Below are positions 3,974 through 60,739 of a DNA stretch of 64,000 nt, in pieces; position 1 is the first letter of the stretch; the number at the start of each line of letters is the position of its first letter. The stretch lies in assembly GCA_032117235.1 (NCBI GenBank), contig JAULZW010000006.1, positions 2,532 through 66,531 of the forward strand, given 5' to 3'. Both the position numbers and the translations under genes were made by a program. Origin of the DNA: Minisyncoccota bacterium. Lineage in GTDB: Bacteria; Patescibacteriota; Minisyncoccia; SW-4-49-11. The notes beneath the pieces were generated by a model that saw nothing but the letters and a program-made list of their open reading frames with translations, was not told the origin of the DNA and searched no databases.

Positions 3974-4990
3974 ATGAAAATTTTAGCAATAGAAACATCT
4001 TGTGATGAAACAGCCTTGGCTTTATTGAATTTAGATATAGAATCTAAAAAATTTAGAGTATTTGATCATATTCTTTATTCACAGATTAATGAACATAGTC
4101 AATATGGAGGAGTAGTCCCAGCCCTTGCTGCTAGACTACATAATAAAAAGCTACCTGTAATGTTACAAGAGTTTATTCATCGTAATGGTAGGGAAATTGA
4201 TATTATTGCAGTCACTGTGGGACCAGGGTTAGAGCCATCTCTATATGTTGGAGTAAATTTAGCTAAACTTTTAGCTGAAACATTAGGAGTTCCACTAATT
4301 CCAGTAAATCATATGCATGGACATATATTCTCAGGGCTTTTAGATGATAATTTAGAAGGCAATATCCCAACAGAATATCCTTTTATTGCCTATATTATAT
4401 CAGGAGGTCATACAGAGCTTGTCTTGGTCAAAGATTATAATGATTATGAAATCATTGGAATTACCCAAGATGATGCAGCTGGGGAGGCTTTTGATAAAGT
4501 AGCTAAAATGCTCAATTTAGCTTATCCGGGAGGGCCCAAAGTTTCCAAATTAGCAGAGATGGGAGATAGTGAAGCTATAAAATTCCCAAGACCAATGTTA
4601 AATTCTGGAGATGGTAAAATGTCTTTTTCAGGACTTAAAACTGCAGTTTTATATCATATTAAAGATAATCCACCTCAAAATGATACAGATATTGCCAATA
4701 TTTGTGCCAGTTTTGAGCAAGCAGTAATAGATGTATTAATAGCAAAATTGAATTGGGCTGTCAATGAATATAATGTCAATCAAGTAATAATAGGTGGGGG
4801 AGTAACAGCTAATATTAAATTAAGACAAGCTTTTGAAGAATATGCTAATCAAAATAATATAAAGCTTTTAATTCCAAATAAAATTTTATCCACAGATAAT
4901 GCTATTATGATCGGAGTAGTAGCCTGTTTAGACATTATACATAATATACAAAATAGACCACAAGAGGTTAATGGTAATTTGGTGGTATAA
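3974..4990 (+). CDS. tsaD: tRNA N6-adenosine threonylcarbamoyltransferase TsaD (Kae1/Gcp)
   Basis: 'MKILAIETSCDETALAL' N-terminus, 'GGGVTAN' motif, His-rich metal site 'HMHGH'. Confidence 0.9.
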   Translation: MKILAIETSCDETALALLNLDIESKKFRVFDHILYSQINEHSQYGGVVPALAARLHNKKLPVMLQEFIHRNGREIDIIAVTVGPGLEPSLYVGVNLAKLLAETLGVPLIPVNHMHGHIFSGLLDDNLEGNIPTEYPFIAYIISGGHTELVLVKDYNDYEIIGITQDDAAGEAFDKVAKMLNLAYPGGPKVSKLAEMGDSEAIKFPRPMLNSGDGKMSFSGLKTAVLYHIKDNPPQNDTDIANICASFEQAVIDVLIAKLNWAVNEYNVNQVIIGGGVTANIKLRQAFEEYANQNNIKLLIPNKILSTDNAIMIGVVACLDIIHNIQNRPQEVNGNLVV

Positions 4991-8352: not shown

Positions 8353-8838
8353 ATGAGATATTTATCAGGAGAAGAAGAACAGGAAGCAAAAGACTATATG
8401 CAATACACCTCCGAACTTGCAAAGTCAGCAACTTGTGAGCGGAGTAAATGTGGATCTATCATCCTCGCTAATAATGTCATTATCGGGGAGGGTATTAATA
8501 GTCCAGCTCATAATCAAGAGAATCAAAGACGCTGTACTTATGATAAAGATTCCTATCACCGCAAAGTAACAGATAAAACCTGTTGTATTCATGCTGAGTA
8601 GAGAGCTATTATGGATGCTCTAGCACGGAATTCAGACAAGATAATAGGCTCAAGATTATATTTTATGAGATTAGATGAAGAGGATAATCTCACCCGAGCG
8701 GGAAAGCCATATTGTGCTATTTGTATCAAAATTTCCCTCGATGTGGGGATACAAGAATTTGTCTTATGGCATGAAGATGGAATCTGTGTATATGATACTG
8801 ATGAATATAATCTGTTATCTTATAAGTATAAGGGGTAG
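8353..8838 (+). pseudogene. CMP/dCMP-type zinc deaminase interrupted by one in-frame TAG (8599-8601)
   Basis: ORFs 8353-8601 and 8611-8838 are in the same frame. The translation reads ...TCCIHAE*RAIMDALARN...KPYCAICIK, so the HAE and PCxxC zinc motifs lie on either side of the stop. Confidence 0.6.
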
Positions 8839-8843
8839 TGTTA

Positions 8844-8872
8844 TTGTAGATATAGGGGAAATGGGGTAGAAT
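8844..8872 (+). promoter_or_regulatory. Conserved sigma70-like promoter cassette, copy 1 (TTGTAG-N17-TAGAAT)
   Basis: -35 TTGTAG at 8844-8849, a 17-nt spacer ATATAGGGGAAATGGGG, and -10 TAGAAT at 8867-8872. It lies upstream of the 8903 CDS and is one of three near-identical copies. Confidence 0.5.
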
Positions 8873-8902
8873 GAGATGATAATATAGTCCCAAATAATTA
8901 CT

Positions 8903-9592: not shown

Positions 9593-9600
9593 AAGTGTTA

Positions 9601-9629
9601 TTGTACAGATAGGGGAAATGGGGTAGAAT
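9601..9629 (+). promoter_or_regulatory. Conserved promoter cassette, copy 2 (TTGTAC-N17-TAGAAT)
   Basis: TTGTAC at 9601-9606, spacer AGATAGGGGAAATGGGG, TAGAAT at 9624-9629. The -10 element overlaps the first ATG of the downstream ORF, which suggests a leaderless transcript starting near the ATG at 9637. Confidence 0.5.
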
Positions 9630-9636
9630 GAATATT

Positions 9637-11570: not shown

Positions 11571-11615
11571 AATACAATTTACTAAATATTTATTGATTTA
11601 ACTATAACATACTTT

Positions 11616-11817
11616 TGCCCCCCTTCGGAGGGGGTGCCTGAAAGGTAGACTGTAAGTCTGGGAAAGGGGTCGGGAAAACGGGAGTTTTCCCGTGAAGGAA
11701 GGTTGGGAAACCGTGAGGTTTCACAGAAGCAAATCCTATTTGCGACGGGGGCGGATAAAATACAAACTTAAACTCTATCCACCTCCGGCCTGACGGCCAC
11801 CTCCTCCAAAGGAGGAT
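11616..11817. repeat. Full copy (modules A+B) of a GC-rich hairpin-dense element; candidate structured ncRNA or miniature mobile element
   Basis: Consecutive perfect hairpins: CCCCCC-ttcg-GAGGGGG, GGGAAAAC-ggga-GTTTTCCC, GAAACC-gtga-GGTTTC, GCAAAT-cct-ATTTGC, GGATA..TATCC, GGCC-tgac-GGCC and CCTCC-aaa-GGAGG. Module A recurs at 12548-12618 and module B at 38051-38156. Confidence 0.5.
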
Positions 11818-11888
11818 AGTTTTTGTAATAAGCTATGGTCGGTAGTCTAATAATATATAGTAATCTTTTTTGTCTACGATCTCTTCTA

Positions 11889-11917
11889 TTGTACGGATAG
11901 GAGAAATGGGTTAGAAT
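11889..11917 (+). promoter_or_regulatory. Conserved promoter cassette, copy 3 (TTGTAC-N17-TAGAAT)
   Basis: TTGTAC at 11889-11894, spacer GGATAGGAGAAATGGGT, TAGAAT at 11912-11917, upstream of the 11949 CDS. Confidence 0.45.
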
Positions 11918-11948
11918 TAGTTTTATAATATAGCAAAAAACACTTAAT

Positions 11949-12377: not shown

Positions 12378-12468
12378 GGAGAGATGGCTGAGCTGGTCGA
12401 AAGCACCACACTGCTAACGTGGCATAGGGTAAAACTTATCAAGGGTTCGAATCCCTTTCTCTCCGCCA
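12378..12468 (+). tRNA. tRNA-Ser (anticodon GCT), type II with a long variable arm and an encoded CCA
   Basis: Acceptor GGAGAGA/TCTCTCC, anticodon loop CTGCTAA, variable arm ATAGG..CTTAT, T-arm AGGG-TTCGAAT-CCCT, discriminator G, then CCA. Confidence 0.9.
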
Positions 12469-12496
12469 AAATTAAGAATAGGGATAATATCCCGAC

Positions 12497-12648
12497 CTTT
12501 AATTTATGGGAGTTAGTAAAAAGGGATTCGAATCCAGGGAAGGGGGCGGGAAACGGGAGTTTCCCGTGGAGGATGTATTGAAACCGAGTGGTTTCAAGGA
12601 GCAAATCCCATTTGCGACAGGTTCGTAATCCCTTTCTCTCCGCCAAAA
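12497..12648 (+). repeat. Degenerate tandem copy of tRNA-Ser (pseudo-tRNA) whose middle is occupied by module A of the GC-rich hairpin element. It ends in a near-exact 28-nt repeat of the tRNA-Ser 3' end.
   Basis: The upstream context and 5' segment ('taatttatgggag') echo the true tRNA ('taattatggagag'). 12620-12648 ('ggttcgtaatccctttctctccgccaaaa') repeats the true 3' end with one indel. 12548-12618 is module A. Confidence 0.5.
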
Positions 12649-12681
12649 TATAGAGGATAGGGCTATCAGTTATTTTGTAAG

Positions 12682-13443
12682 ATGAAACTTATATCATTAA
12701 ATACATGGGGTGGTCGAGCAGGGAAGGAAAATCTTCTTGAGTTTTTTAAGGCTTATAAAGATGTAGATATTTTTTGTTTACAGGAAATTTGGGCTGCTCC
12801 ATATGAAAATCTAGAATATGACTCTGTTAGTGGATTTAGTATTGATGATGATTATGCTAAATTTTATATTCAAGAAGTTGTAGATTTGATAACAACTCAT
12901 ACAGCATATTTTAGACCACAATATTCTGATTATTGGGGCCTGATGATATTAATCAAAAAAGATATAAATGTAATTTCAGAGGGGGAGCTTTTCGTCCATA
13001 AAGAAAAGGACTATATTCCTGAAGGAGATATTGGATTACATGCACGAAATATACAATTTGCGACAATTGCAACTCCGAATGGGCACAGGTCTATTATCAA
13101 TTTTCATGGATTATGGAATGGTAAAGGAAAAGGGGATAGCGAAGATAGACTATTACAATCAGATAAAATAATTGAGTTTATACAAACTTTAGCTAATCCA
13201 TATATTATAGCTTGAGATTTTAATCTATTGCCGGATACTCAGAGTATTAAAAAGTTTGAGGACTTGGGACTGAATAATCTCATCAAAGAATATAATATTA
13301 CTTCAACACGTACGAGTTTTTATACTAAGCCCGAAAAATTTGCCGATTATGTGTTTACCGATAAAGATATTACTATAAAAGACTTTAAGGTATTACCTGA
13401 TGAGGTATCTGATCATAGTGCTTTGTATTTGGAATTTGAATAA
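12682..13443 (+). pseudogene. Endonuclease/exonuclease/phosphatase (EEP) family protein interrupted by an in-frame TGA at 13213-13215
   Basis: ORFs 12682-13215 and 13228-13443 share a frame. The sequence reads 'PYIIA*DFNLLPD', so the stop sits where the EEP 'GDFN' Gly is expected. The C-terminus has 'SDHSALY', as in the EEP family. Confidence 0.6.
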
Positions 13444-22778: not shown

Positions 22779-23219
22779 TTATTCAGAGATATCCTGAATT
22801 ACAGTTTTTTCCCCATAAGTATCTAAAGTCCAAGCTACCTCTTCTACTCTAGATTGGCTATACTCATTCTTCTCCCGCATATAAGAGGCTTTCTTTTTTT
22901 GAGTAGTAATTTTGATAACTGATCTTGTAATATCAACATCACGAGACCATAAAAATAAAGTCGGTTTTATAATATAAATTATAATATTTGTAAGTAAAAT
23001 ATCAAAGTTCTGGCCATTTATTTTAACAAATGCAAAAGCAAAGGTTGCCCCTATCACAGGTAATATACTAATAAAAAACACTCCTAGATTAGGCTTGAAG
23101 TACCATAAAAATCCACCAATCACGACTCCAATAGCTAAAACAGCAAATTGTCTAATAGTAATAGGTCCAAATATTTTATCTTCAGAATCAACAAATTGAG
23201 GGATATTATATTGTTGCAT
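22779..23219 (-). CDS. PrgI/VirB3-like small membrane protein (tentative)
   Basis: 146 aa. The N-terminal 'KIFGPITIRQFAVLAIGVVIGGFLWY' followed by a second TM helix resembles the PrgI-family 'fGltlrQ' pattern. It is the last gene of the operon. Confidence 0.4.
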   Translation of the reverse strand: MQQYNIPQFVDSEDKIFGPITIRQFAVLAIGVVIGGFLWYFKPNLGVFFISILPVIGATFAFAFVKINGQNFDILLTNIIIYIIKPTLFLWSRDVDITRSVIKITTQKKKASYMREKNEYSQSRVEEVAWTLDTYGEKTVIQDISE

Positions 23220-23225
23220 ATTAGT

Positions 23226-24113
23226 TTATTCAGGTTGCTTTAAATTTACTAAATTTTTAGGAATAGGAGTTGGCTTGGCAGTTAGTACAATTGGAGCTGA
23301 AGACTTAGTCGGAACAGGCATACGAGGCACCGGTTGAGGGCTAAATTGAGGTATATTATTAGCAATACCACTATGAGTAGTGGATTGGGTAGGTTTAGGA
23401 TTTGTATTATTAACTATATGTGTTGGTAAGGGAGTATTAATAGCCTCCTTACGAACAGGCTCAGTATTAACAGCAGGTATATTATTATTATCTAAATCTT
23501 GATAAAGTACAGTAGTATCTGTTTGTAAATAATCATAAAAAGATAATACTTTTCTTAAAGCTTCTTTTTCAGCTGGACTCAAAGTTTGGACTACAGTATC
23601 TCCACTAATAAATTTAGATTTAGCAAAATTATCATTAGAGTTAATCCCAGTAGCTCTATTATAATATTCAATCCAATTAGCAATATTAGGTTTAGCTTGA
23701 GGATTGTCTTGAGATAAATGTAGGGGAACAGTCCCAATTTGCTGATTGTTTTTCTCAACTAAACTCAATAAATCTTTTCGCATCATTTCTTTGATTAACT
23801 CTATTGGATAAATAGAATATTTACTCTCAATTCTGGCTCTAAGATCTCGCTCAGAAGGCCAAATAGGATTCAAAGACTCAATTAGGTTAAAAGATATAAT
23901 GTTAAATAATAATTCGTATTTTAAATTCGGAATAGCCGTCACATAAAGTTGGAAAATAATTTTAGATAATTCGCGATAAGCATCTGGATTGGATGTTTTT
24001 ATATTATTATCAATAAGAGATTTTTCTAATTTTTCAGCAAATTCAAAAGCCCCGAGAACATTGTCATAAGTTATCAGTGATTTGGCTTCTTCTTGTATTT
24101 CAGTGAGTGTCAT
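23226..24113 (-). CDS. Hypothetical protein with a Pro-rich C-terminus
   Basis: 295 aa with no TM helix. The C-terminus is 'PQPVPRMPVPTKSSAPIVLTAKPTPIPKNL'. It lies in the operon with the VirB6-like gene. Confidence 0.4.
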   Translation of the reverse strand: MTLTEIQEEAKSLITYDNVLGAFEFAEKLEKSLIDNNIKTSNPDAYRELSKIIFQLYVTAIPNLKYELLFNIISFNLIESLNPIWPSERDLRARIESKYSIYPIELIKEMMRKDLLSLVEKNNQQIGTVPLHLSQDNPQAKPNIANWIEYYNRATGINSNDNFAKSKFISGDTVVQTLSPAEKEALRKVLSFYDYLQTDTTVLYQDLDNNNIPAVNTEPVRKEAINTPLPTHIVNNTNPKPTQSTTHSGIANNIPQFSPQPVPRMPVPTKSSAPIVLTAKPTPIPKNLVNLKQPE

Positions 24114-24138
24114 GGGGGGATATTTTATTTTTATATTA

Positions 24139-26214
24139 TTAAGGAGATGAAGTTATTCTATTTTTACCACCTAGTCCTTTTAGTGCAGCCTTCAATTTGT
24201 TCTCACCAATTTCTGGCACTGATAATTCTGGGTAAGTGGCACGAGCTACAGCTGGATCTGATTGATATAAAGATAAATAGTTATTTATTTCTTTAATAAT
24301 ATTGGTTCTTATTCCTCCATATTTATTCCATGATTTTGGATCTTCTAAAGTGTCGAGTGAAGATTCATTTGCTATAATCGGAGCAAATTTCTTAATATCA
24401 AAGTTGTCTTCATATATTTCTCTTCCTGATGAATCTGTAACTTTACTTTTTGTATTAAATATAGAGTTATTTTTTGCAACCATATCTCCTGCTCCGACTA
24501 ATCCAGCTTTTGCTGCTTTAGCAGAGGGTGAGTAATTTGTATTTTTTACATCTCGTTCTGCTAATCCAGCGGCAAAATTACCAACCCCCTTATCATTTAA
24601 TATATTAGCCTGACGACTTCTAAAGCTATTTGTTGTTTGAGTACCTATAACTTTACCATTAGCATCTCGGATAAGGTTTCCAGCACTATCTTTTTGCTCA
24701 AAATTATCATTAATGAATGCATCAAGTTGCTTAGCATCAGTATCATAACCATTAGATGGGTCTGAATATTTACTATAATCACCTTGTGTAAATATTTTAT
24801 TCCATCCTTTTAATTCAGATATTCTTGTTGCTAATGCCATGGCAGTGAATTTATCTCCATCATCAAGAGCTTTCTTCATATCTTGAGCTAATTTATCAAC
24901 ATTAAATTCATCTTTGACTTCTGTAGCAGCAGCTCCTTGTAGTGTAGCAGCCATTTTTTTATAGCGTTCATTTCCTTTCTCTTCTAACTTACCTTCATTA
25001 AACAAACGAATTGCTTTTTCTTTCTCAAAATCTTCTAATTGTTGTTTTTTCCCTTCAGCTGAAAACCCTTGAAATCTTCCCACGAATCCAATCCCTTCTT
25101 TTTGTTGTTCTATCAAATCTCTTTTTTTACTTTCATATTTTTGATTGGCATTTTGCAATGCTTTAATTCCAGTTACTCCACCCACAGCTCCAGCTGTATT
25201 AGTGAGCCCACCAGCTAACTTATCAGTATTCTTAATACCACCCTGCACTAATTCTTTTCCCTTACCAAACATTTTTCCAGTACCAACTCCTCCAGCTCCG
25301 ACATAAGCTCCTAGTCCTAATGTGGCAACAGTACCAGCTACTCCCACAGCATTTTTTAGTATAGTAGGAGCAGATTGAGCAGCCTTGGTGGCTGTAGAAT
25401 TGGCCAAGAATAATAATCCTATCACTAAGACATAATTTATTAGATTACCATTATTCATCAAATTATCCCCACCAGTCGTAGCAGTATTAGCAGAAATTCC
25501 AGTGCTCATCAAAGAAAATGCTAAATATAAGAAAAACATTAAAGTTGGCCCAGTAACTAAGGCTTCTTGTAATTGTTTTTTCCAATCATCACTAATAGAT
25601 TTTAGTCCTGGTATTAAAGTAGCCATAAAAGCCAAAGGAGCTAACATTATTACAAACCACAAGGTTACTATCCTCATAGCTAGAATAAGTGCAGTCCATA
25701 ATAGTACAAATACTAAAATAGCAATTACAACAATAGTAAATATATTTAAAATAATATTCTCTGTATTAGATTCTGAACCTGATTCTGCTATTCTGGATGC
25801 AGTTCCAATAATGTTTGCCATATTAGGTCCAAAGGAATTATAAAAAGATATCATTATAATTTGGCTAATATCTATCAAGAATCCTACAATAGCTTTACTG
25901 AAATTTATAAATAAAGCTACAAATATAAAATTAGGCAACATTCTTTTAGCTGTATAATTATCTAAGGATCCAACATTAAGTACAGTTGAGATTGCAATTA
26001 ATAATAAAACTAAAGCAAAGAATAAATTAGAGAAGTTTCTAGTAATTTCCCAGCCAGCATTAACTCCTTCACTAAAGAAATTCTGATAGGACATAACATT
26101 TGTTAATAATGGGACAACAGCATTGTTTAATAACATTAAAAAAAAGTTTTTAAACATACCAACTATGTTTGCCACTAAAAATCCACCTGCTTTATCTAAA
26201 AACCAATTAACCAT
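24139..26214 (-). CDS. VirB6/TrbL-like polytopic membrane protein with a long Gly-rich hydrophilic C-terminal tail
   Basis: 691 aa with 6-7 TM helices. 'VIMLAPLAFMATLIPGLKSISDDWKKQLQEAL' fits the TrbL/VirB6 core pattern (aPl..a..l.p.t....W.kql). The tail runs 'GAGGVGTGKMFGKGKE...'. Confidence 0.5.
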   Translation of the reverse strand: MVNWFLDKAGGFLVANIVGMFKNFFLMLLNNAVVPLLTNVMSYQNFFSEGVNAGWEITRNFSNLFFALVLLLIAISTVLNVGSLDNYTAKRMLPNFIFVALFINFSKAIVGFLIDISQIIMISFYNSFGPNMANIIGTASRIAESGSESNTENIILNIFTIVVIAILVFVLLWTALILAMRIVTLWFVIMLAPLAFMATLIPGLKSISDDWKKQLQEALVTGPTLMFFLYLAFSLMSTGISANTATTGGDNLMNNGNLINYVLVIGLLFLANSTATKAAQSAPTILKNAVGVAGTVATLGLGAYVGAGGVGTGKMFGKGKELVQGGIKNTDKLAGGLTNTAGAVGGVTGIKALQNANQKYESKKRDLIEQQKEGIGFVGRFQGFSAEGKKQQLEDFEKEKAIRLFNEGKLEEKGNERYKKMAATLQGAAATEVKDEFNVDKLAQDMKKALDDGDKFTAMALATRISELKGWNKIFTQGDYSKYSDPSNGYDTDAKQLDAFINDNFEQKDSAGNLIRDANGKVIGTQTTNSFRSRQANILNDKGVGNFAAGLAERDVKNTNYSPSAKAAKAGLVGAGDMVAKNNSIFNTKSKVTDSSGREIYEDNFDIKKFAPIIANESSLDTLEDPKSWNKYGGIRTNIIKEINNYLSLYQSDPAVARATYPELSVPEIGENKLKAALKGLGGKNRITSSP

Positions 26215-26220
26215 AAAATT

Positions 26221-27921
26221 TTAAGGTATTAAACCATTAACAGCTCCACTTACTGCATTGTTTACAGCTCCAGTAGCATTTGTTATGGCTCCACTTACAT
26301 TGCCTATTCCTGGAATTTCCATATTGCCAACTATTCCGTTTAATAATCCAGAAATCTGTTTGTTTAATTCACAAGATAAACCACTAGTTACATTTATTAC
26401 TAATGAATCTTGAAGAGATTTAAAAAATCTATCTGGGTCAGGTATTGCTCCAGTTCCAGTTAATCCGGCTTGCAACTGATTAGCAAATCCTTGTGGATTC
26501 TTCAGAGAATTAATAGGATCAGATTTGGCATTATTAAGTACAGAGGACAAGGTATTATTTACTCCATATAACCCTTGGGTTAGGACTGGTTTTAGTGTGC
26601 CGTCTAGAATATTTTGAGGTATAGCTTCAAAACAATTATCCCCAGAAGCTAAAATAGCTTGATCTATAGTAGCTTCATTAACTTTTTGGGATAGGGAAGA
26701 TATATTAGATCCTGGAGTTTGGATTACTTTAGTAAATGGATTTTTATTATTATCCTGTGTTTTAGAGAAGTATCCATCTCCCATATAGACTACCTCGTCG
26801 TTTAATTGTGTTTCTGCCTTTTTAGATTTTTCATCAGCCATAAAACCAATTGTAGTTGCAATGTCATTAGCATTATTATTTGTTTTAAGTCCTTCAATTA
26901 TACAGTCTAAGGTATCTGCCTCTTCTACTTTGATATTCCCACATTTTTCAGTAAATGTTTCTTTAGGTAATTGACTCTCGGTTGGGTCTTGTAAGTCTTT
27001 AAAATATTCTTCCAACTCCTGATTTTTCTTTAAGGAAAAATTAGCATAATCTCCATAAGTCTCTATAGCATCATTTGACACTACTCCAGTTTCAGGATCT
27101 AGAGCTCCGAATTGTATCCCTAGTTTTCTCAAATCATCTAAGTTTTGAGGCATTAGATTATCATTACTAATTTGAGTTCTTAGAGTATCACTTACTGTAG
27201 CAATAGTTTTAGCCTTTTGCTGTGCTGCCAGAGGAGCATCAACTAATTCCTTTTGTTGATATAGAGCTAAATCATCTACTACAACTACTGGTAATGGAGT
27301 AGGTGAGGTGATATTAACTGGCAAAGGTAAAGGATTGAATAAGTCTACTGGTAGCGGAGCTATCAATCTTCTGGTATCAATTACTTCATTTATATTATTA
27401 TAATTACATTCCTCAAATATTTTTTCTAATCCTATTAAATCATTGAAGTTACCAGTAAATTGTCCGATAGGATCTGCTACTACTCCAGTTAATGTACCAT
27501 CTAATTTAAGTCCAAATGGTGAATTTAAATTCCCTAAAAAATCCCCAGCTAAATTACTAAGATTACTGGTAAAGGAGCCTCCCAATATTCCTCCAGTAAT
27601 AGAATTTGCAAAGTCAGATCCAAGTCCATTTGGTCCAGATCCACAACCAACATCTCCTTTATATGGACTTTCCGGAGCTTCTATAGGCTGTGGTTTTACA
27701 CAGGTATATGTCGCGTTTCCAACTTTATCCTTAGACTCTATTGGTAGTAATCCACGATATTGCTTCTGGCAAACTTCATCTTGGCTACATTTTTTATCCC
27801 CACATGTTTGACCGTATAAATTATCGGCATAAGTTATATTGGGTAAAATAAATATAAATAAAGATAAAAATAATATTTGGAATAATTTTATGTTTATTTT
27901 ATTTTTAATAATATAATTCAT
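26221..27921 (-). CDS. Secreted Cys- and Gly-rich protein (possible VirB5/TrbJ-like or surface adhesin component)
   Basis: 566 aa. Signal peptide, an N-terminal Cys cluster, and Gly-rich segments 'GCGSGPNGLGSDFANSITGGILGG'. It sits immediately upstream of the VirB6-like gene with a 6-nt gap. Confidence 0.4.
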   Translation of the reverse strand: MNYIIKNKINIKLFQILFLSLFIFILPNITYADNLYGQTCGDKKCSQDEVCQKQYRGLLPIESKDKVGNATYTCVKPQPIEAPESPYKGDVGCGSGPNGLGSDFANSITGGILGGSFTSNLSNLAGDFLGNLNSPFGLKLDGTLTGVVADPIGQFTGNFNDLIGLEKIFEECNYNNINEVIDTRRLIAPLPVDLFNPLPLPVNITSPTPLPVVVVDDLALYQQKELVDAPLAAQQKAKTIATVSDTLRTQISNDNLMPQNLDDLRKLGIQFGALDPETGVVSNDAIETYGDYANFSLKKNQELEEYFKDLQDPTESQLPKETFTEKCGNIKVEEADTLDCIIEGLKTNNNANDIATTIGFMADEKSKKAETQLNDEVVYMGDGYFSKTQDNNKNPFTKVIQTPGSNISSLSQKVNEATIDQAILASGDNCFEAIPQNILDGTLKPVLTQGLYGVNNTLSSVLNNAKSDPINSLKNPQGFANQLQAGLTGTGAIPDPDRFFKSLQDSLVINVTSGLSCELNKQISGLLNGIVGNMEIPGIGNVSGAITNATGAVNNAVSGAVNGLIP

Positions 27922-27924
27922 ATA

Positions 27925-28677
27925 TTATGGTTTTTTATAAATAAGATTATATTTTTGTCTAAGTGTTTGTAATTCTTGTTTGATTACTAAGTCTAGTCTT
28001 TGAAGTAAAGATACAGTTAATTTGTTGTTAATGTCTAATTTTAAAGGGTCAGAACTAGCATTTAATAAAATCAATAAAAAGCTATTTTGTACTTGGGCTA
28101 TTCTTATATAAGCCTTATGTAATTGAAGAGCATCTGGAGGAACTTCTATTATGAATAAAGATAAATATAAACTCTTGTTTTTATTAAGTAGGGATTGTAT
28201 ATTTTGAGTTTTTCCACTCAAAGCATCTTCAGACAATTGATTTATATTTGGTTGAATAGAATTCTCTCTGAATACATTGTATAAATTAGTTAGATAATTG
28301 TCAATAGAGTTTTCATTTAATTCTTCAGTTGATAATAAATTTATATTTTTTTCTGGTAATGGAGGTAAATCTATATTATCAATGCCTATGTTTTTGGTAT
28401 TATTTTGGATTTCCTCCACTAATGGCTTATCTGAGATGAGTGAGTTAGTCAATATCTCGGCTCCTATTTTGGTAAAATTAACTTCTTGTTGCTTGCCATC
28501 TTTGGTGGTTTGTAAAATTCTGATTGGAGCAAGTCCTTTATCTATTTCTGATAAATTAGCTGATTGAGACTTGCCAGAGTTTTTTATAATATAAAAAACA
28601 ACAACTAATACTATAACTAATATAATTATAATGCCTATATAAACCAGATTTTGCCTTTTGAAGATAGATTGTAACAT
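27925..28677 (-). CDS. Bitopic membrane protein (VirB8-like topology, unconfirmed)
   Basis: 250 aa with a single N-terminal TM 'LVYIGIIIILVIVLVVVFYII'. It is the first gene of the operon. Confidence 0.35.
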   Translation of the reverse strand: MLQSIFKRQNLVYIGIIIILVIVLVVVFYIIKNSGKSQSANLSEIDKGLAPIRILQTTKDGKQQEVNFTKIGAEILTNSLISDKPLVEEIQNNTKNIGIDNIDLPPLPEKNINLLSTEELNENSIDNYLTNLYNVFRENSIQPNINQLSEDALSGKTQNIQSLLNKNKSLYLSLFIIEVPPDALQLHKAYIRIAQVQNSFLLILLNASSDPLKLDINNKLTVSLLQRLDLVIKQELQTLRQKYNLIYKKP

Positions 28678-36074: not shown

Positions 36075-37052
36075 CTAAAATAAACTTGGTACTTTAATTT
36101 TATTATCTAATCTTTTTTCTGCAATTTTAAAATAATCTTGATCAAGTTCATATCCTATAAATTTTCTTTTTAACTCTATACAAGCCACTCCTGTTGACCC
36201 ACTTCCCATAAAAGGGTCTAAAATAATATGTTCATCGAATGTTATTAGTTTTACTAAATGGTGCATCAATTCAATAGGTTTTAGTGTGGGGTGAAAATTA
36301 AAATCTTCTTTATTTTGTCTTACTTTTGGTACTAAAAAAAATTTATCATATCCATCTTTAAATTCATCAGTTCTTATTATATTTGCTGGAACTCTACCTT
36401 TTTCGTGGGGGTTATGTCCTACTTTACCTTCATTTTCAGCATAAGGTAGTCTTGTATTTTCAAAATTTAATGCTCCAGTACCATATTTAATTATATTTTG
36501 AGCAACATTTAAACCTTTTTCTAAGGGCTTTTGTATTAAAATGATTGGTTCATATGCTGGCTTTAATCCTAATCCTGCCCCATTATATCTTTTACCCAAT
36601 TCTGAAATAGGAGATAATTTATGTTTCTCACCTACTTTATAATTATCAGCACCATTTTTTTTATATCCTTGAACATATTTATATCGTCCAACTTTTTTAC
36701 TTTCAATATTAAGTTCTGAATCTATCAACAAGCCAACATTTCTACTTTTTGGCATTCCATTTAAATAAGACCAAAATAATACATCTTTGATTAAAAAGCC
36801 ACTATCTTCTAAATCAACCATTAACCTATGCATTAATCTAACAGAACTAAAAACCAAACCAAAACCACCTGGTTTAATTTTTTTAAAACTATTATTCCAT
36901 ATTTCTTTACTGGGTAAATCTTTATCCCAATAATTATTTTGGTATGAAATACCATAAGGAGGATCAGTTATTATTGAATCAATATAATTATCCTCTATAT
37001 CTTCTAGTAAATATGAGTTTTTATTATAAATTTGAAACATGTTAAACATCAT
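36075..37052 (-). CDS. DNA methyltransferase (beta-class N6-adenine / N4-cytosine; motif IV precedes motif I)
   Basis: 'IITDPPYGISY' (motif IV) is followed near the C-terminus by 'ILDPFMGSGSTGVAC' (motif I). Confidence 0.85.
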   Translation of the reverse strand: MMFNMFQIYNKNSYLLEDIEDNYIDSIITDPPYGISYQNNYWDKDLPSKEIWNNSFKKIKPGGFGLVFSSVRLMHRLMVDLEDSGFLIKDVLFWSYLNGMPKSRNVGLLIDSELNIESKKVGRYKYVQGYKKNGADNYKVGEKHKLSPISELGKRYNGAGLGLKPAYEPIILIQKPLEKGLNVAQNIIKYGTGALNFENTRLPYAENEGKVGHNPHEKGRVPANIIRTDEFKDGYDKFFLVPKVRQNKEDFNFHPTLKPIELMHHLVKLITFDEHIILDPFMGSGSTGVACIELKRKFIGYELDQDYFKIAEKRLDNKIKVPSLF

Positions 37053-37662
37053 TAATGCTCAAAATATCATCTATTGTTAAATATTTTGATATATTTCTTT
37101 TATAATTTATTAATAATTTATATACAAAATCTTTTTTCTTATCTGGTGGAACAATAACATTAAATTTATACTCTTGAATCATTTTTTCTATTCCAATATT
37201 TTGGGTTGAGCGAGTACTTGTATTGGCAACAGCTTTTACTCTTTCCAGTAAATATTTCCCTAAAGCTACATGTTGCCCATATATAATAAATTGTAAATCT
37301 ACAGCTCCTTTCCATACTCCAACAGCTGTAAACAATCTTTTATCACTAAAAGCTATAGCTTTTTCTTCACTTGTATCATTCCATGTTCCACCCAATCTTT
37401 TAGAAAAAACACTACATTGTTTTACCTCAAGAAATTTACCAGTTTTTGAGCTCTTACCGTCAAAGCCATGTTTATTGAAATTTAACAAATCATATCCTAA
37501 ATAATTACCAACAATAGAATCTCTTATTTCATTTATTGTTGTATCAGTATCATAAGACTTAAATTCATTTTGAAATTTAGTTAATTCTTCTAATGCAAGA
37601 ATTCCTTTCGTTCTAAAGGAATATGGGATTGGTCTATAATCACCTTTTTTAAAAATATTCAT
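37042..37662 (-). CDS. Candidate restriction endonuclease (PD-(D/E)xK-like) partner of the methyltransferase
   Basis: It overlaps the MTase start by 11 nt. 'HGFDGKSSKTGKFLEVKQ' gives a D...E-V-K arrangement. The tracked ORF extends to 37716, but that part overlaps a tRNA-derived repeat, so the Met at 37662 is preferred. Confidence 0.45.
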   Translation of the reverse strand: MNIFKKGDYRPIPYSFRTKGILALEELTKFQNEFKSYDTDTTINEIRDSIVGNYLGYDLLNFNKHGFDGKSSKTGKFLEVKQCSVFSKRLGGTWNDTSEEKAIAFSDKRLFTAVGVWKGAVDLQFIIYGQHVALGKYLLERVKAVANTSTRSTQNIGIEKMIQEYKFNVIVPPDKKKDFVYKLLINYKRNISKYLTIDDILSINDV

Positions 37663-37692
37663 AATATTTTTTAGTATACATAAAACAATTTG

Positions 37693-37711
37693 GCGGAAGT
37701 GAGAGGATTCG
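37693..37711 (-). repeat. 19-nt direct repeat of the tRNA-Ser(TGA) 3' end (att-like)
   Basis: 'gcggaagtgagaggattcg' at 37693-37711 matches 37899-37917. The roughly 190-bp interval between the copies has acceptor-like pairing (GAAGTGA...TCACTTCC), like a degraded tRNA copy. Confidence 0.6.
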
Positions 37712-37899
37712 GTCACAAGTAATTTTCCTGACGGAAAATTCTCGCGACCCCGTCTCGCTGTGTTCGCCTTGTGCTTCGCACAAACTCACACTGGGCTGCG
37801 ACTTTCTCATCCCCACGGGAGCAATGCTATTGCTCTCTGTCACTTCTTCAAATATTATTTTTATCTTTTGGCATAAATACCAAAAGATAAAAATATATG

Positions 37900-37986
37900 C
37901 GGAAGTGAGAGGATTCGAACCTCTGGTAGGGGTAAACCTACAACAGTTTTCAAGACTGCCGCCTTCAACCGCTCAGCCACACTTCC
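37900..37986 (-). tRNA. tRNA-Ser (anticodon TGA), type II
   Basis: Minus-strand read: GGAAGTG acceptor, anticodon loop CTTGAAA, long variable arm, T-arm AGAGG-TTCGAAT-CCTCT, discriminator G. Confidence 0.9.
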
Positions 37987-38050
37987 ATTTATAAAATTTA
38001 TTATATCATATTTATGCACTTTTGTACATACTATATATAGAGTCTTAAAA

Positions 38051-38156
38051 TTCCCCTCTTGAGGGGTGTACAGCTTTGCTGGACGGGGTGGATAAAACAT
38101 AAACTAAAACTATATCCACCTCCGGCACTCCGTGCCACCTCCTCCAAAGGAGGACA
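38051..38156. repeat. Partial copy (module B) of the GC-rich hairpin element
   Basis: CCCCTC-tt-GAGGGG, GGATAAAA...TATCC, GGCAC-tcc-GTGCC (compensatory versus GGCC-tgac-GGCC at 11.8 kb) and CCTCC-aaa-GGAGG. It abuts the 5' side of tRNA-Ser(TGA). Confidence 0.45.
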
Positions 38157-38238
38157 ATGTTTTATACTAATTTGTTATTAGATTATTATATTAGATATAA
38201 AGTATGCTATAATATTCATAGAATTTAATATAAAATTT

Positions 38239-57535: not shown

Positions 57536-58498
57536 ATGGAAACAAAATATAAGGTTTTAATAGTGGAAGATGATCCATTAATTAGACAAATTTATACTGA
57601 AAGGCTGAGTGCAGATCAAGATATTGATGTTTTTACAGCAGAAGATGGCTTAGATGGGTTAAATAAAATTAAGGAACAAAAATACAATTTAATTTTTTCT
57701 GGTATACAAATGCCAAATAAGACTGGGTTTGAACTATTTCAAGATTTACAAAATGATGTAGAGCTATCTAATATTCCATTTGTTATATTTAGTCATTTAG
57801 GTAGAGTTGAAGATATACAAACAGCAAAAGAATTAGGAATAGATAACTTTATAATTAGGGGTAGTACTACTCCAGATGAAGTAGCAATGACAATCAAACA
57901 TATTATTAGTAAACATAATATGTTTGAGAGTTTAGCTATAAAACAATATAAAATATTAATTGTTGAGGATAATTCTGAGATAAGAGCTACATATAGAGAT
58001 AGATTTGTTCAAAGCCCACAAATTATAGTAGAAGAAGCGATAGATGGACTAGATGGATTGAATAAAATTAAAACAAATAAATATGATTTGGTATTTTCTG
58101 GTATTTATATGCCTAATCAAACAGGGTTTGAACTATTCCAAGAAGTTCAAAATTTGGTAGATAAGAAAGATATTCCTATAGTTTTATTTAGTCATTGGGG
58201 TAGACCCGAGGATATAGAAAGGGCTAAAGAATTAGGTGTAAAATATTTTATTATAAGAGGTCAAAATACTCCTAATGATATTTTTAATCAAATATTATCT
58301 ATTTTAAGTGTTAATGATCAAATGTATAAACTTGTAATTAAAAAAGACTCCTTAGATTACTCTAAATTTGTTGCAAGATTTTATCCAAATTATATTATTG
58401 AAAATTTGGATAATGATGACATTTCAGTTAGAGTTATTTTAAGTGAGAATTCAAAGCCATTTAAATTCTTTATAGAATTAGATGATATAAATAAATAA
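57536..58498 (+). CDS. Tandem double receiver-domain protein in which both phospho-acceptor positions are Gly (pseudo-receiver), with no output domain
   Basis: Two CheY-like repeats: 'KVLIVEDD...NLIFSGIQMP...IPFVIFSH...FIIRG' and 'KILIVEDN...DLVFSGIYMP...IPIVLFSH...FIIRG'. Gly replaces the canonical Asp and Arg replaces the conserved Lys. Confidence 0.65.
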   Translation: METKYKVLIVEDDPLIRQIYTERLSADQDIDVFTAEDGLDGLNKIKEQKYNLIFSGIQMPNKTGFELFQDLQNDVELSNIPFVIFSHLGRVEDIQTAKELGIDNFIIRGSTTPDEVAMTIKHIISKHNMFESLAIKQYKILIVEDNSEIRATYRDRFVQSPQIIVEEAIDGLDGLNKIKTNKYDLVFSGIYMPNQTGFELFQEVQNLVDKKDIPIVLFSHWGRPEDIERAKELGVKYFIIRGQNTPNDIFNQILSILSVNDQMYKLVIKKDSLDYSKFVARFYPNYIIENLDNDDISVRVILSENSKPFKFFIELDDINK

Positions 58499-60385: not shown

Positions 60386-60713
60386 CCAATAAGAATGGTA
60401 ATCGCGCATATCCATTTTATGGTGAGTGAGGAAAGTCTGGACACCTGTTGCTTAAAAACAATAAATGATAGTGGGTAACACCCATCCTTAAGTTTACTTA
60501 AGCGGGATAAGTATCGCAGAGACAAAACATTTGAGTATAACTCATCTAAGGTGAAAAGAGATAAACCCTATCAGGTGCAAGGCCGTGCTTTTCTTAATTG
60601 AAAAGAGTGCCGCCAAGAAAGTGCTGGTAACAGTACTTCAAGATAAATGATTACCTTAAGTATTATTGCTAGACAATATGCTTAAACAGAATCCAGCTTA
60701 TATTCTTTATTGG
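60386..60713 (+). ncRNA. rnpB: RNase P RNA (bacterial type, reduced size)
   Basis: P4 strands 'GAGGAAAGTCTGGAC' and 'ACAGAATCCAGCTTA'. P1 pairs CCAATAAGAATGG with ATTCTTTATTGG. A TATAAT -10 lies at 60371-60376. Confidence 0.8.
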
Positions 60714-60739
60714 GTACTATATATCACCAATATAATAAT

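Follow-up and report, generated by a model that had tools for sequence, protein, structure and literature searches.

Directly behind its tRNA-Ser(TGA) gene, the 64-kb stretch of AT-rich Minisyncoccota DNA that we analyzed, here called the window (31.8% GC), carries a non-coding insert of 187 bp. Judged by sequence comparison, it is one copy in a so far undescribed family of conserved RNA elements that are structured, occur behind at least seven different tRNA genes, and are distinct in kind from the classes tested. It lies next to a pair of restriction-modification (R-M) genes, and the R-M cassette and the 187-bp element are two independent things that stand side by side. The insert was compared across 13 related Paceibacteria tRNA-Ser(TGA) loci; the contigs carrying these and the other loci discussed below are labeled L001, L002, L009 to L019, and so on.

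The tRNA-Ser(UGA) gene occupies positions 37899 to 37986 on the minus strand (ARAGORN; Rfam RF00005, 57.3 bits), and its 88 nt are 100% identical in L002, L009, L012 to L015, and L018. A promoter-like site, TGTACA-17-TATAAT with a TG upstream, is located at 38000-38028 on the same strand; it agrees with the consensus at 10 of 12 positions and is a consensus match only. A preliminary description of this DNA had reported that the 3' end of the gene is repeated downstream, and our searches bear this out. The window has the 19-mer GCGGAAGTGAGAGGATTCG exactly twice (37693-37711 and 37899-37917), against an expectation of zero from 100 shuffles, and a search of the window allowing up to 3 mismatches did not find a third. 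The proximal copy, 37899-37917, is the final 19 nt of the tRNA gene and does not encode the CCA. On the tRNA strand the repeat reads CGAATCCTCTCACTTCCGC, which extends from C56 in the T-loop through the discriminator G73 plus one C. The distal copy (37693-37711, minus strand), which we call the tail, is followed by CA, so that it reads ...GCCA, and is continuous with the flank that is present in L002. The two copies are separated by the 187 bp of the insert (37712-37898, minus strand).

Read on the tRNA strand, as are all of its parts, the insert begins with an AT-rich hairpin recognized by folding, H0 (37863-37888), directly after the tRNA. H0 varies between species and is terminator-like in some of them; its sequence is unrelated in L011, L012, L017, and L019, and identical in L015. 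There follows segment 'b', GAAGTGA (37840-37846), the complement of the acceptor 3' strand TCACTTC in the distal copy. Segment 'b' is found in all Ser-TGA copies; as a feature of the whole family it was discarded, since outside the Ser-TGA group it does no better than shuffles. The hairpin P2, GAGCAAT-AGC-ATTGCTC (37819-37835), shows compensatory changes, for example GAGTAAT/ATTACTC in L019; all groups have a hairpin here, and the related GCAATAG occurs in the Leu-CAA and Leu-TAA copies. Segment 'a', GGGGAT (37809-37814), is the complement of the ATCCTC with which the distal copy starts, and is followed by GA and an invariant GAA. The remainder, 37712-37806, is a conserved core with a P3/P4 domain and a long P5 hairpin, ending in CTTGTGAC. 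The covariance model of this core, R1, has a single match in the window (37700-37816, 133 bits, E 2e-39).

The GC content of the conserved core is about 0.53, against 0.32 for the window, and the insert folds far better than shuffled sequences on the tRNA strand (z-score of the minimum free energy, -4.9). Searches of both tRNA-Ser loci of the window against Rfam 15, at the gathering threshold and with E values up to 10, returned nothing relevant. The weak matches of the insert were chance-level hits of microRNA type on the AT-rich hairpin and a match to permuted transfer-messenger RNA (tmRNA) at 11.7 bits, E 5.6. A hammerhead, a group II intron domain V, tmRNA, signal recognition particle RNA, and 6S RNA were also considered by eye and set aside, as the motifs fell in the variable guide region or had no support from a model.

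Comparison with the related loci defines the unit. The window and L002 align collinearly (86.5% nucleotide identity) except for a clean indel of 206 bp that corresponds to the 187 bp plus one copy of the repeat; the two blocks of the alignment overlap by exactly the 19 nt. L001 and L002 lack this 206-bp block and carry the same R-M genes (96% amino acid identity) directly after tRNA-Ser, without the repeat or the 187-bp interval; in L002, the end of the tRNA, ...CACTTCCGCCA, is followed by 26 nt and then by the ATG of the nuclease gene. The arrangement of VIT1 followed by tRNA-Ser(TGA) is common to ten other Paceibacteria species, none of which has the R-M genes. The 187-bp block is nevertheless present, 90-97% identical, in six of these ten (L011, L012, L015, L017, L018, and L019). 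The repeat is not a general property of tRNA-Ser genes, a possibility that the preliminary description had allowed for: five of the 13 tRNA-Ser(TGA) loci are without it.

The core is not confined to tRNA-Ser(TGA). Metagenome loci were gathered with a 24-nt core pattern conserved among seven Ser-TGA copies, which yielded 19 loci. A core of about 95-105 nt is found behind tRNA-Gln(CTG), Ser(CGA), Ser(TGA), Ser(GCT), Leu(TAA), Leu(CAA), and Gly(TCC), directly downstream and on the same strand. Every copy has ...TGTGAC as the last bases of its core, and next comes a copy of the local tRNA from exactly C56 (CGAATCC..., CAAGTCC..., CGAGTCC..., or CAAATCC...). The left edge of the repeat is therefore always at U55|C56; its right edge varies. 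The exact duplication is 10 to 94 nt long, mostly 19 to 23, including extensions to about 55 nt, and the size of the element is uniform, at about 150-205 bp. Segment 'a' with the invariant GAA stands immediately 5' of the core, and 'a' reverse-complements the first bases of the tail: GGGACTTG for CAAGTCCC, GGGATTCG for CGAATCCC, GAGGAT for ATCCTC. A contiguous complement of 5-8 nt was present in all 13 copies tested. The order on the tRNA strand is hairpin P2, segment 'a', core, and tail. Because 'a' and the tail match the local tRNA at each site, the tRNA gene remains intact. The window copy fits this definition of the family: it has the R1 core, lies downstream of a tRNA on the same strand, has a tail that starts from C56, and has the preceding complement.

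Copies of a tRNA's own 3' end were counted for those tRNA genes, 44 of the 48 found in the loci, whose downstream sequence reaches 250 nt or more. Such a copy was present for 21 of the 44; in 20 of these 21 it came with this core, and the remaining one is the tRNA-Ser(GCT) of the window. For the other 23 tRNAs there was no downstream copy of the 3' end. Model R1 recovered 28 copies above 90 bits among the loci analyzed. Tandem arrays with a period of 154 nt occur in L030 and L044, and one contig (L031 and L044) bears two tRNA-Leu genes that together have at least three copies of the element.

We did not find a protein common to the neighborhoods of different tRNA contexts. The genes downstream of the copies are unrelated to one another and include the R-M genes, an HD-domain gene, TspO, and others. 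Among the roughly 50 open reading frames (ORFs) of the window that were scanned, no integrase, transposase, or reverse transcriptase was recognized. Scans of IMG/VR for the core of the Ser-TGA insert ('A') and for that of the Ser-GCT insert ('X', described below) gave 0 matches, as did a distant blastn search of the element against GenBank phages, and there is thus no evidence for a viral parent. A full-text search of the literature did not return a description of such an element.

Several individual copies depart from the usual layout. In L019, a third copy of GTGAC plus tRNA-Ser tail (26 nt, 4293-4318) lies about 760 bp past the element, beyond an HD-domain gene, and in L009 and L013 this same gene comes directly after the tRNA. 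The arrangement suggests repeated recombination at the tails. The second tandem copy in L030 (6622-6754) has its P4 loop broken by a 32-nt hairpin, and its R1 score drops to 21.9 bits. In L033 (46-1860), two copies of the element are separated by about 1.5 kb of GC-rich sequence that has long inverted repeats at its ends and resembles an insertion sequence or else a chimera of the assembly.

The consensus fold was built on an alignment of 20 sequences, using RNAalifold and counts of pairs. It comprises a helix P1, formed by 'a' and the tail, the P3/P4 helices, the long hairpin P5, and a three-way junction. Of the cells in its 40 pairs, 95.6% are paired. Changes on both sides were seen for 10 pairs (43 cells), and none of 500 shuffles was as good; when the partners were slid by 1-3 columns, the paired cells dropped to 35-48%. 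In helix 1, between 'a' and the tail, four of seven pairs changed on both sides, tracking the tRNA species. The invariant G-U pairs would be C-A mismatches on the opposite strand, so the functional strand is the sense strand of the tRNA. The covariation supports the conclusion that the core is a structured RNA. Many unpaired positions in the core are invariant too, which suggests tertiary structure, a binding partner, or catalysis.

Several observations point to mobility. A single core is found at seven tRNA species in near-identical sequence, there are tandem arrays, one contig has at least three copies at two tRNA-Leu genes, the presence/absence difference between the window and L002 is precise, and the copy in the window is 96.6% identical to that in L015 over 208 nt that include H0, with the flanking genes at 76-87%. 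From these we infer that the element is mobile, or was so recently. As it has no enzyme of its own, it would have been moved in trans. In our assessment it is probably, though by no means certainly, a trans-mobilized mini-element that codes for an RNA, targets the T-loop of tRNA genes, and is separate from the ordinary R-M cassette.

The element interrupts the tRNA gene at the T-loop, between U55 and C56, and its tail, a copy of the host tRNA from C56 to the 3' end, restores the gene. Segment 'a' is complementary to the start of the tail, and the two thus close the core in a helix. Together with the invariant GAA, 'a' spans the complement of U54 to N63 and thus crosses the point of insertion, and it may have a role in recognition of the T-arm. 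Three routes would fit the data. A small circle consisting of the core and a tRNA 3' segment could integrate by recombination within the tRNA segment, which would make the left edge sharp and let the right edge depend on how much homology is carried. Alternatively, the RNA could be joined to C56 of a pre-tRNA and then be copied back into DNA; this would account for duplications that run into the tRNA trailer. The third route would use an RNA-guided recombinase encoded elsewhere. More tentatively, and with more doubt than confidence, we propose that this is a novel type of mobile genetic element, in which the small RNA reads the T-loop and T-stem of a tRNA gene or of the transcript of that gene by reprogrammable pairing, directs insertion at U55|C56, and supplies the replacement 3' end. 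The RNA would then either carry out the catalysis itself (attack on the T-loop and copying into DNA) or guide an unlinked host or helper enzyme.

Several points weigh against a mobile element. Deletion between direct repeats would explain the presence/absence difference equally well. The Ser-TGA copies are at the same chromosomal site in many species, which fits vertical inheritance. The duplicated segment of the Gly and Leu-TAA copies extends through P2, so that the boundaries of the unit, and with them the membership of P2 and 'b', are ambiguous; segment 'b' itself, when set against shuffles, is borderline (16-65 of 1000), and outside the Ser-TGA group it does not reach significance. Because the loci were gathered by the 24-nt core pattern, the sample is biased towards near-identical cores, and the effective sequence number of the covariance model R1 is 0.81, a low depth. 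The chief alternative is a family of resident, functional, vertically inherited RNA genes that are co-transcribed with the tRNA as its companions. Such an RNA would mimic or pair with the T-arm and the 3' half of the acceptor, and could for example influence processing, sequester a tRNA-binding factor, or act as a decoy; its tail would be kept identical to the tRNA by gene conversion, and empty sites would arise by deletion between the copies. The order VIT1, tRNA-Ser(TGA), element is the same in at least seven species; the core is very strongly conserved, unpaired nucleotides included; and H0 has diverged beyond recognition between most species, as it would in old orthologues. In addition, the complementarity of 'a' plus GAA to the real tRNA begins at U54, and its fit to the tRNA is better than that to the decayed tail in L026 and L031. 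A resident gene accounts poorly, however, for the near-identical core at different tRNA species, for tandem arrays, for a patchy distribution among close relatives, and for P2 sequence common to elements at different tRNAs, nor would it be expected to keep H0 identical between the window and L015 despite 13-24% divergence of the flanks. We consider it a serious yet rather unlikely alternative and favor mobilization in trans.

Three further explanations were considered, two of which involve an attachment (att) site. Direct repeats of tRNA 3' ends that begin in the T-loop are the classical footprint of elements with a tyrosine integrase, and the insert could be what is left of an island or prophage after an internal deletion, with the two copies as attL and attR. 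The resemblance of the repeats, the variable slot next to the tRNA, and the third tail copy past the HD-domain gene in L019 speak for this. It is nevertheless improbable given the uniform size of about 150-205 bp and a single covarying core, with strand-specific G-U pairs, at seven tRNA species; moreover, no integrase was found in any neighborhood or among the window ORFs scanned, the core is missing from IMG/VR and the GenBank phages, and in the collections scanned we did not find a larger integrase-encoding element with the core in its attP. That the R-M pair itself came in as cargo of an island at tRNA-Ser, and that the 19-nt repeat served this island as its att site, we regard as very improbable. 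In favor of this reading, the genes are directly beside the distal copy, were recently acquired, and are slightly low in GC. They lie (36075-37662) outside both copies, however, with no third copy beyond them, so that the repeat is not the att site of an R-M island; in L002 the R-M genes stand without the repeat, in six species the repeat stands without them, and in other genomes the cassette is not adjacent to a tRNA. What remains of the defense island at a tRNA hotspot proposed in the preliminary description is an R-M cassette in a variable slot between tRNA-Ser and TspO; the att role of the repeat does not survive. The same description had seen acceptor-like pairing in the interval and likened it to a degraded tRNA. 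The pairing is possible, between the 7 nt of segment 'b' and the acceptor 3' strand of the distal copy, and this, together with a 3' end identical to that of the tRNA, is what a decayed tRNA-Ser duplicate would have to offer. A pseudogene of this kind is hardly credible, as ARAGORN and RF00005 were silent on 37691-37898 even with E values up to 10, the interior is 90-97% conserved and common to elements at Leu, Gly, and Gln tRNAs, and the fold is unrelated to a cloverleaf.

The R-M genes are a predicted type II system of an ordinary kind. The beta-class DNA methyltransferase (36075-37052, minus strand) matches the full PF01555 profile (positions 1-221, E 1.6e-34) over residues 24-313 of its 325, as well as the PADLOC profile MTase_II (E 2.7e-46), and its gene overlaps the nuclease gene by 11 nt. 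The motifs reported earlier were recovered, DPPY at about residue 30 and FMGSGST at about 270 of 325; DPPY (motif IV) N-terminal to FMGSGST (motif I) is the motif order of the beta class. Its closest solved relatives are DpnA and CcrM, both N6-adenine enzymes, and it probably modifies adenine at N6.

The adjoining gene (37042-37662, minus strand) encodes a candidate restriction endonuclease of 206 amino acids, of PD-(D/E)xK type and with a predicted PvuII-like fold. The nuclease-like ORF and its D...EVK motif, as first described, are real, except that the start assigned to it, a GTG at 37716 that overlaps the repeat, has to be replaced: because all 207 homologues are about 205-209 amino acids long and begin with M-x-I-F, the true start is the ATG at 37662. 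D68, E79, and K81 are invariant among 34 homologues (E79-V-K81). Pfam, NCBIfam, PADLOC, and a phmmer search of PDB sequences gave no match to this protein, and the search by fold alone succeeded. The AlphaFold2 model has a predicted local distance difference test score (pLDDT) of 93 and a predicted template modeling score (pTM) of 0.87, and its best PDB match in Foldseek is PvuII (probability 1.0, target-normalized TM-score 0.56-0.66), with further matches to NhoI, Eco15I-N, DpnI, EcoRV, and HincII. With the PF01555 and PADLOC matches of the methyltransferase and with the triad and modeled fold of the nuclease, the earlier pairing of the two ORFs is upheld, and they credibly form a type II R-M pair.

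Homologues of the nuclease share 58-96% identity with it and come from Gammaproteobacteria, Bacteroidota, Ignavibacteria, Campylobacterota, and the candidate phyla radiation (CPR). A 206-amino-acid ORF followed by a PF01555 gene is found in L001 to L007 in four unrelated neighborhoods, and in other genomes the cassette has no adjoining tRNA. By this distribution, the pair is an ordinary two-gene cassette that moves horizontally. Its genes have a GC content of 0.27 against a mean of 0.319 (z about -1.4), which is slightly low. Among the 13 related Paceibacteria loci, the R-M genes are present in the window and one close relative only, and are absent from L009 to L019. The slot between tRNA-Ser(TGA) and TspO differs between the loci: it is empty in L014, where TspO follows 38 nt after the tRNA, measures about 0.7 kb in L012 and 2.7 kb in L009, and holds the R-M genes in the window and in L001/L002. 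The direct repeat TATACTAAAAAATAT, upstream of both the nuclease gene and TspO, was considered as a footprint of insertion and rejected, as it is missing upstream of the cassette in L003, L004, and L007; it looks like a local promoter sequence.

Compared with PvuII-type R-M systems, the pair is alike in the predicted fold, the D...E-x-K triad, the small size of the endonuclease, the adjoining PF01555 methyltransferase with motif IV before motif I, and the mobile two-gene format. It differs in that the nuclease has no detectable sequence similarity to any solved endonuclease, and in that the methyltransferase has DPPY and is nearest to N6-adenine enzymes, whereas M.PvuII is an N4-cytosine enzyme. 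The pair adds another uncharacterized family of PvuII-fold endonucleases, widespread and without a Pfam model, which is useful for annotation of the REBASE type.

The 187-bp element has partial counterparts among known systems. With tRNA-targeting integrative elements (islands and prophages with a tyrosine integrase, and non-autonomous derivatives of the cis-mobilizable element, or CIME, type) it shares insertion inside a tRNA gene, the sublocation in the T-loop, duplication of the 3' part from the T-loop so that the gene stays intact, and repeated use of the site, which leads to tandem copies. Unlike them, it measures 150-205 bp, has no integrase, and has one structured-RNA core with a built-in complement of the target at seven tRNA 3' ends. 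The bridge RNA of IS110, the seekRNA of IS1111, and the omega RNA of TnpB and IscB likewise join a conserved, structured RNA scaffold, about 100-180 nt long and encoded where a mobile element ends, to a segment of about 20 nt identical or complementary to the target, and there too the target part changes while the scaffold stays constant. The element differs from these in lacking a linked recombinase or nuclease gene and an Rfam match, in its long and variable target duplication, and in an RNA that carries both a target-identical tail and the complement of that tail.

A short segment borne by the element that pairs with the 3' part of a tRNA recalls the primer-binding site of long terminal repeat (LTR) retroelements, and one that pairs across the point of insertion recalls the exon-binding and intron-binding sites (EBS-IBS) of group II introns. 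However, the element has no reverse transcriptase, LTR, or intron domain structure; it is about 5-fold below the smallest group II introns in size, and its complement covers positions 54/56-63 and not the terminal 18 nt. Finally, it resembles miniature inverted-repeat transposable elements (MITEs) and repetitive extragenic palindromic (REP)-like repeats in its small size, its lack of coding capacity, its multiple copies, its high GC content and many hairpins within an AT-rich genome, and its presence/absence polymorphism. In contrast to these, its position is fixed at U55|C56 of tRNA genes, its covariation is that of an RNA, it has no terminal inverted repeats besides the pairing of 'a' with the tail, and the length of the duplication is not fixed.

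The second tRNA-Ser locus of the window, tRNA-Ser(GCT) (12378-12468), had also been said to have a repeat of its 3' end, and this proved correct: 12450-12477 and 12627-12654 match over 28 nt at 93% identity, 23 of them exact. The insert behind this gene (12469-12654, plus strand) consists of a hairpin (12480-12493), a 16-nt complement 'a' (12520-12535), a core designated X (12537-12618), and a tail (12620-12645); the X core ends in TTGCGAC. Homology to the R1 core was considered and rejected (11.6 bits, E 0.36): the architecture is analogous and the core is different. A core of the X type also lies downstream of tRNA-Asp(GTC) in L042 (10780-10930, minus strand), where it ends in a short copy of the acceptor 3' strand, ATCCCCGCCA. 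The X family thus has tRNA tails at more than one tRNA, and with R1 and X elements both present, these genomes hold at least two families of small structured elements that are associated with tRNA ends.

Module X is also part of a composite GC-rich repeat, at 11600-11850 of the window, in which it stands between a 5' hairpin (CCCCCTTCGGAGGGGG-like) and a module Y (GGTGGATAAAA...TATCCACCTCCGGC...CCTCCTCCAAAGGAGGA plus a T-run, terminator-looking). Further copies are at 38040-38160 of the window and in L002 (1-48 and 4460-4820), L009 (5822-5962), L016 (26-240), L030 (3249-3354), and L013 (5694-5885). The composite repeat is found at non-orthologous intergenic sites in close relatives, its internal length varies, and a search against Rfam gave no match. 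One copy sits between tRNA-Ser(TGA) and VIT1, where the spacer is about 160 bp longer than that of L002. The only public contig with the exact VIT1 protein of the window, L008, ends 110 nt upstream of VIT1, inside module Y (1-110), and these repeats thus break short-read assemblies beside tRNA genes.

Directly downstream of the Ser-GCT insert, a gene of the PF03372 endonuclease/exonuclease/phosphatase family appears to be split into two adjacent ORFs (12682-13215 and 13228-13443); it may be a pseudogene or carry a frameshift. A direct repeat of 38 nt, AGTGTTATTGTA..ATAGGGGAAATGGGGTAGAATGA, at 8837-8874, 9594-9631, and 11882-11919, stands upstream of three genes and looks like a shared promoter or leader. 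On the minus strand, 22779-28677 holds a cluster with a PrgI-family protein and large proteins without Pfam matches, one of which weakly matches TrbL/VirB6; the cluster may encode a type IV secretion or DNA-uptake apparatus. A 399-bp direct repeat at 57643-58278 was examined as a mobile repeat and dismissed, as it represents the two receiver domains of one response-regulator ORF (57536-58498). The window also encodes an RNase P RNA of bacterial class A (60386-60717, 125.9 bits), an ordinary feature; RNase P would be the natural 5'-processing enzyme for a tRNA-like minihelix.

The surprise in this window is the element behind tRNA-Ser(TGA), with an RNA core that is better conserved than the neighboring proteins, one exact nucleotide of insertion in seven tRNA genes, and, in each copy, a complement matched to the target and a spare 3' end of the tRNA. 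If the element is mobile, its targeting would be held in a few base pairs that have been re-set repeatedly in nature, and it would have what drew interest to bridge RNAs and omega RNAs, here without an attached protein. Should insertion be directed by the RNA, the element would be a natural, protein-less, programmable module for site-specific insertion. Reduced CPR genomes rarely retain non-essential RNA, and if the element is instead a resident companion of the tRNA, it would represent an unrecognized layer of tRNA biology in these bacteria. Either reading would account for the fact that the regions next to tRNA genes break assemblies and resemble att sites in these genomes.

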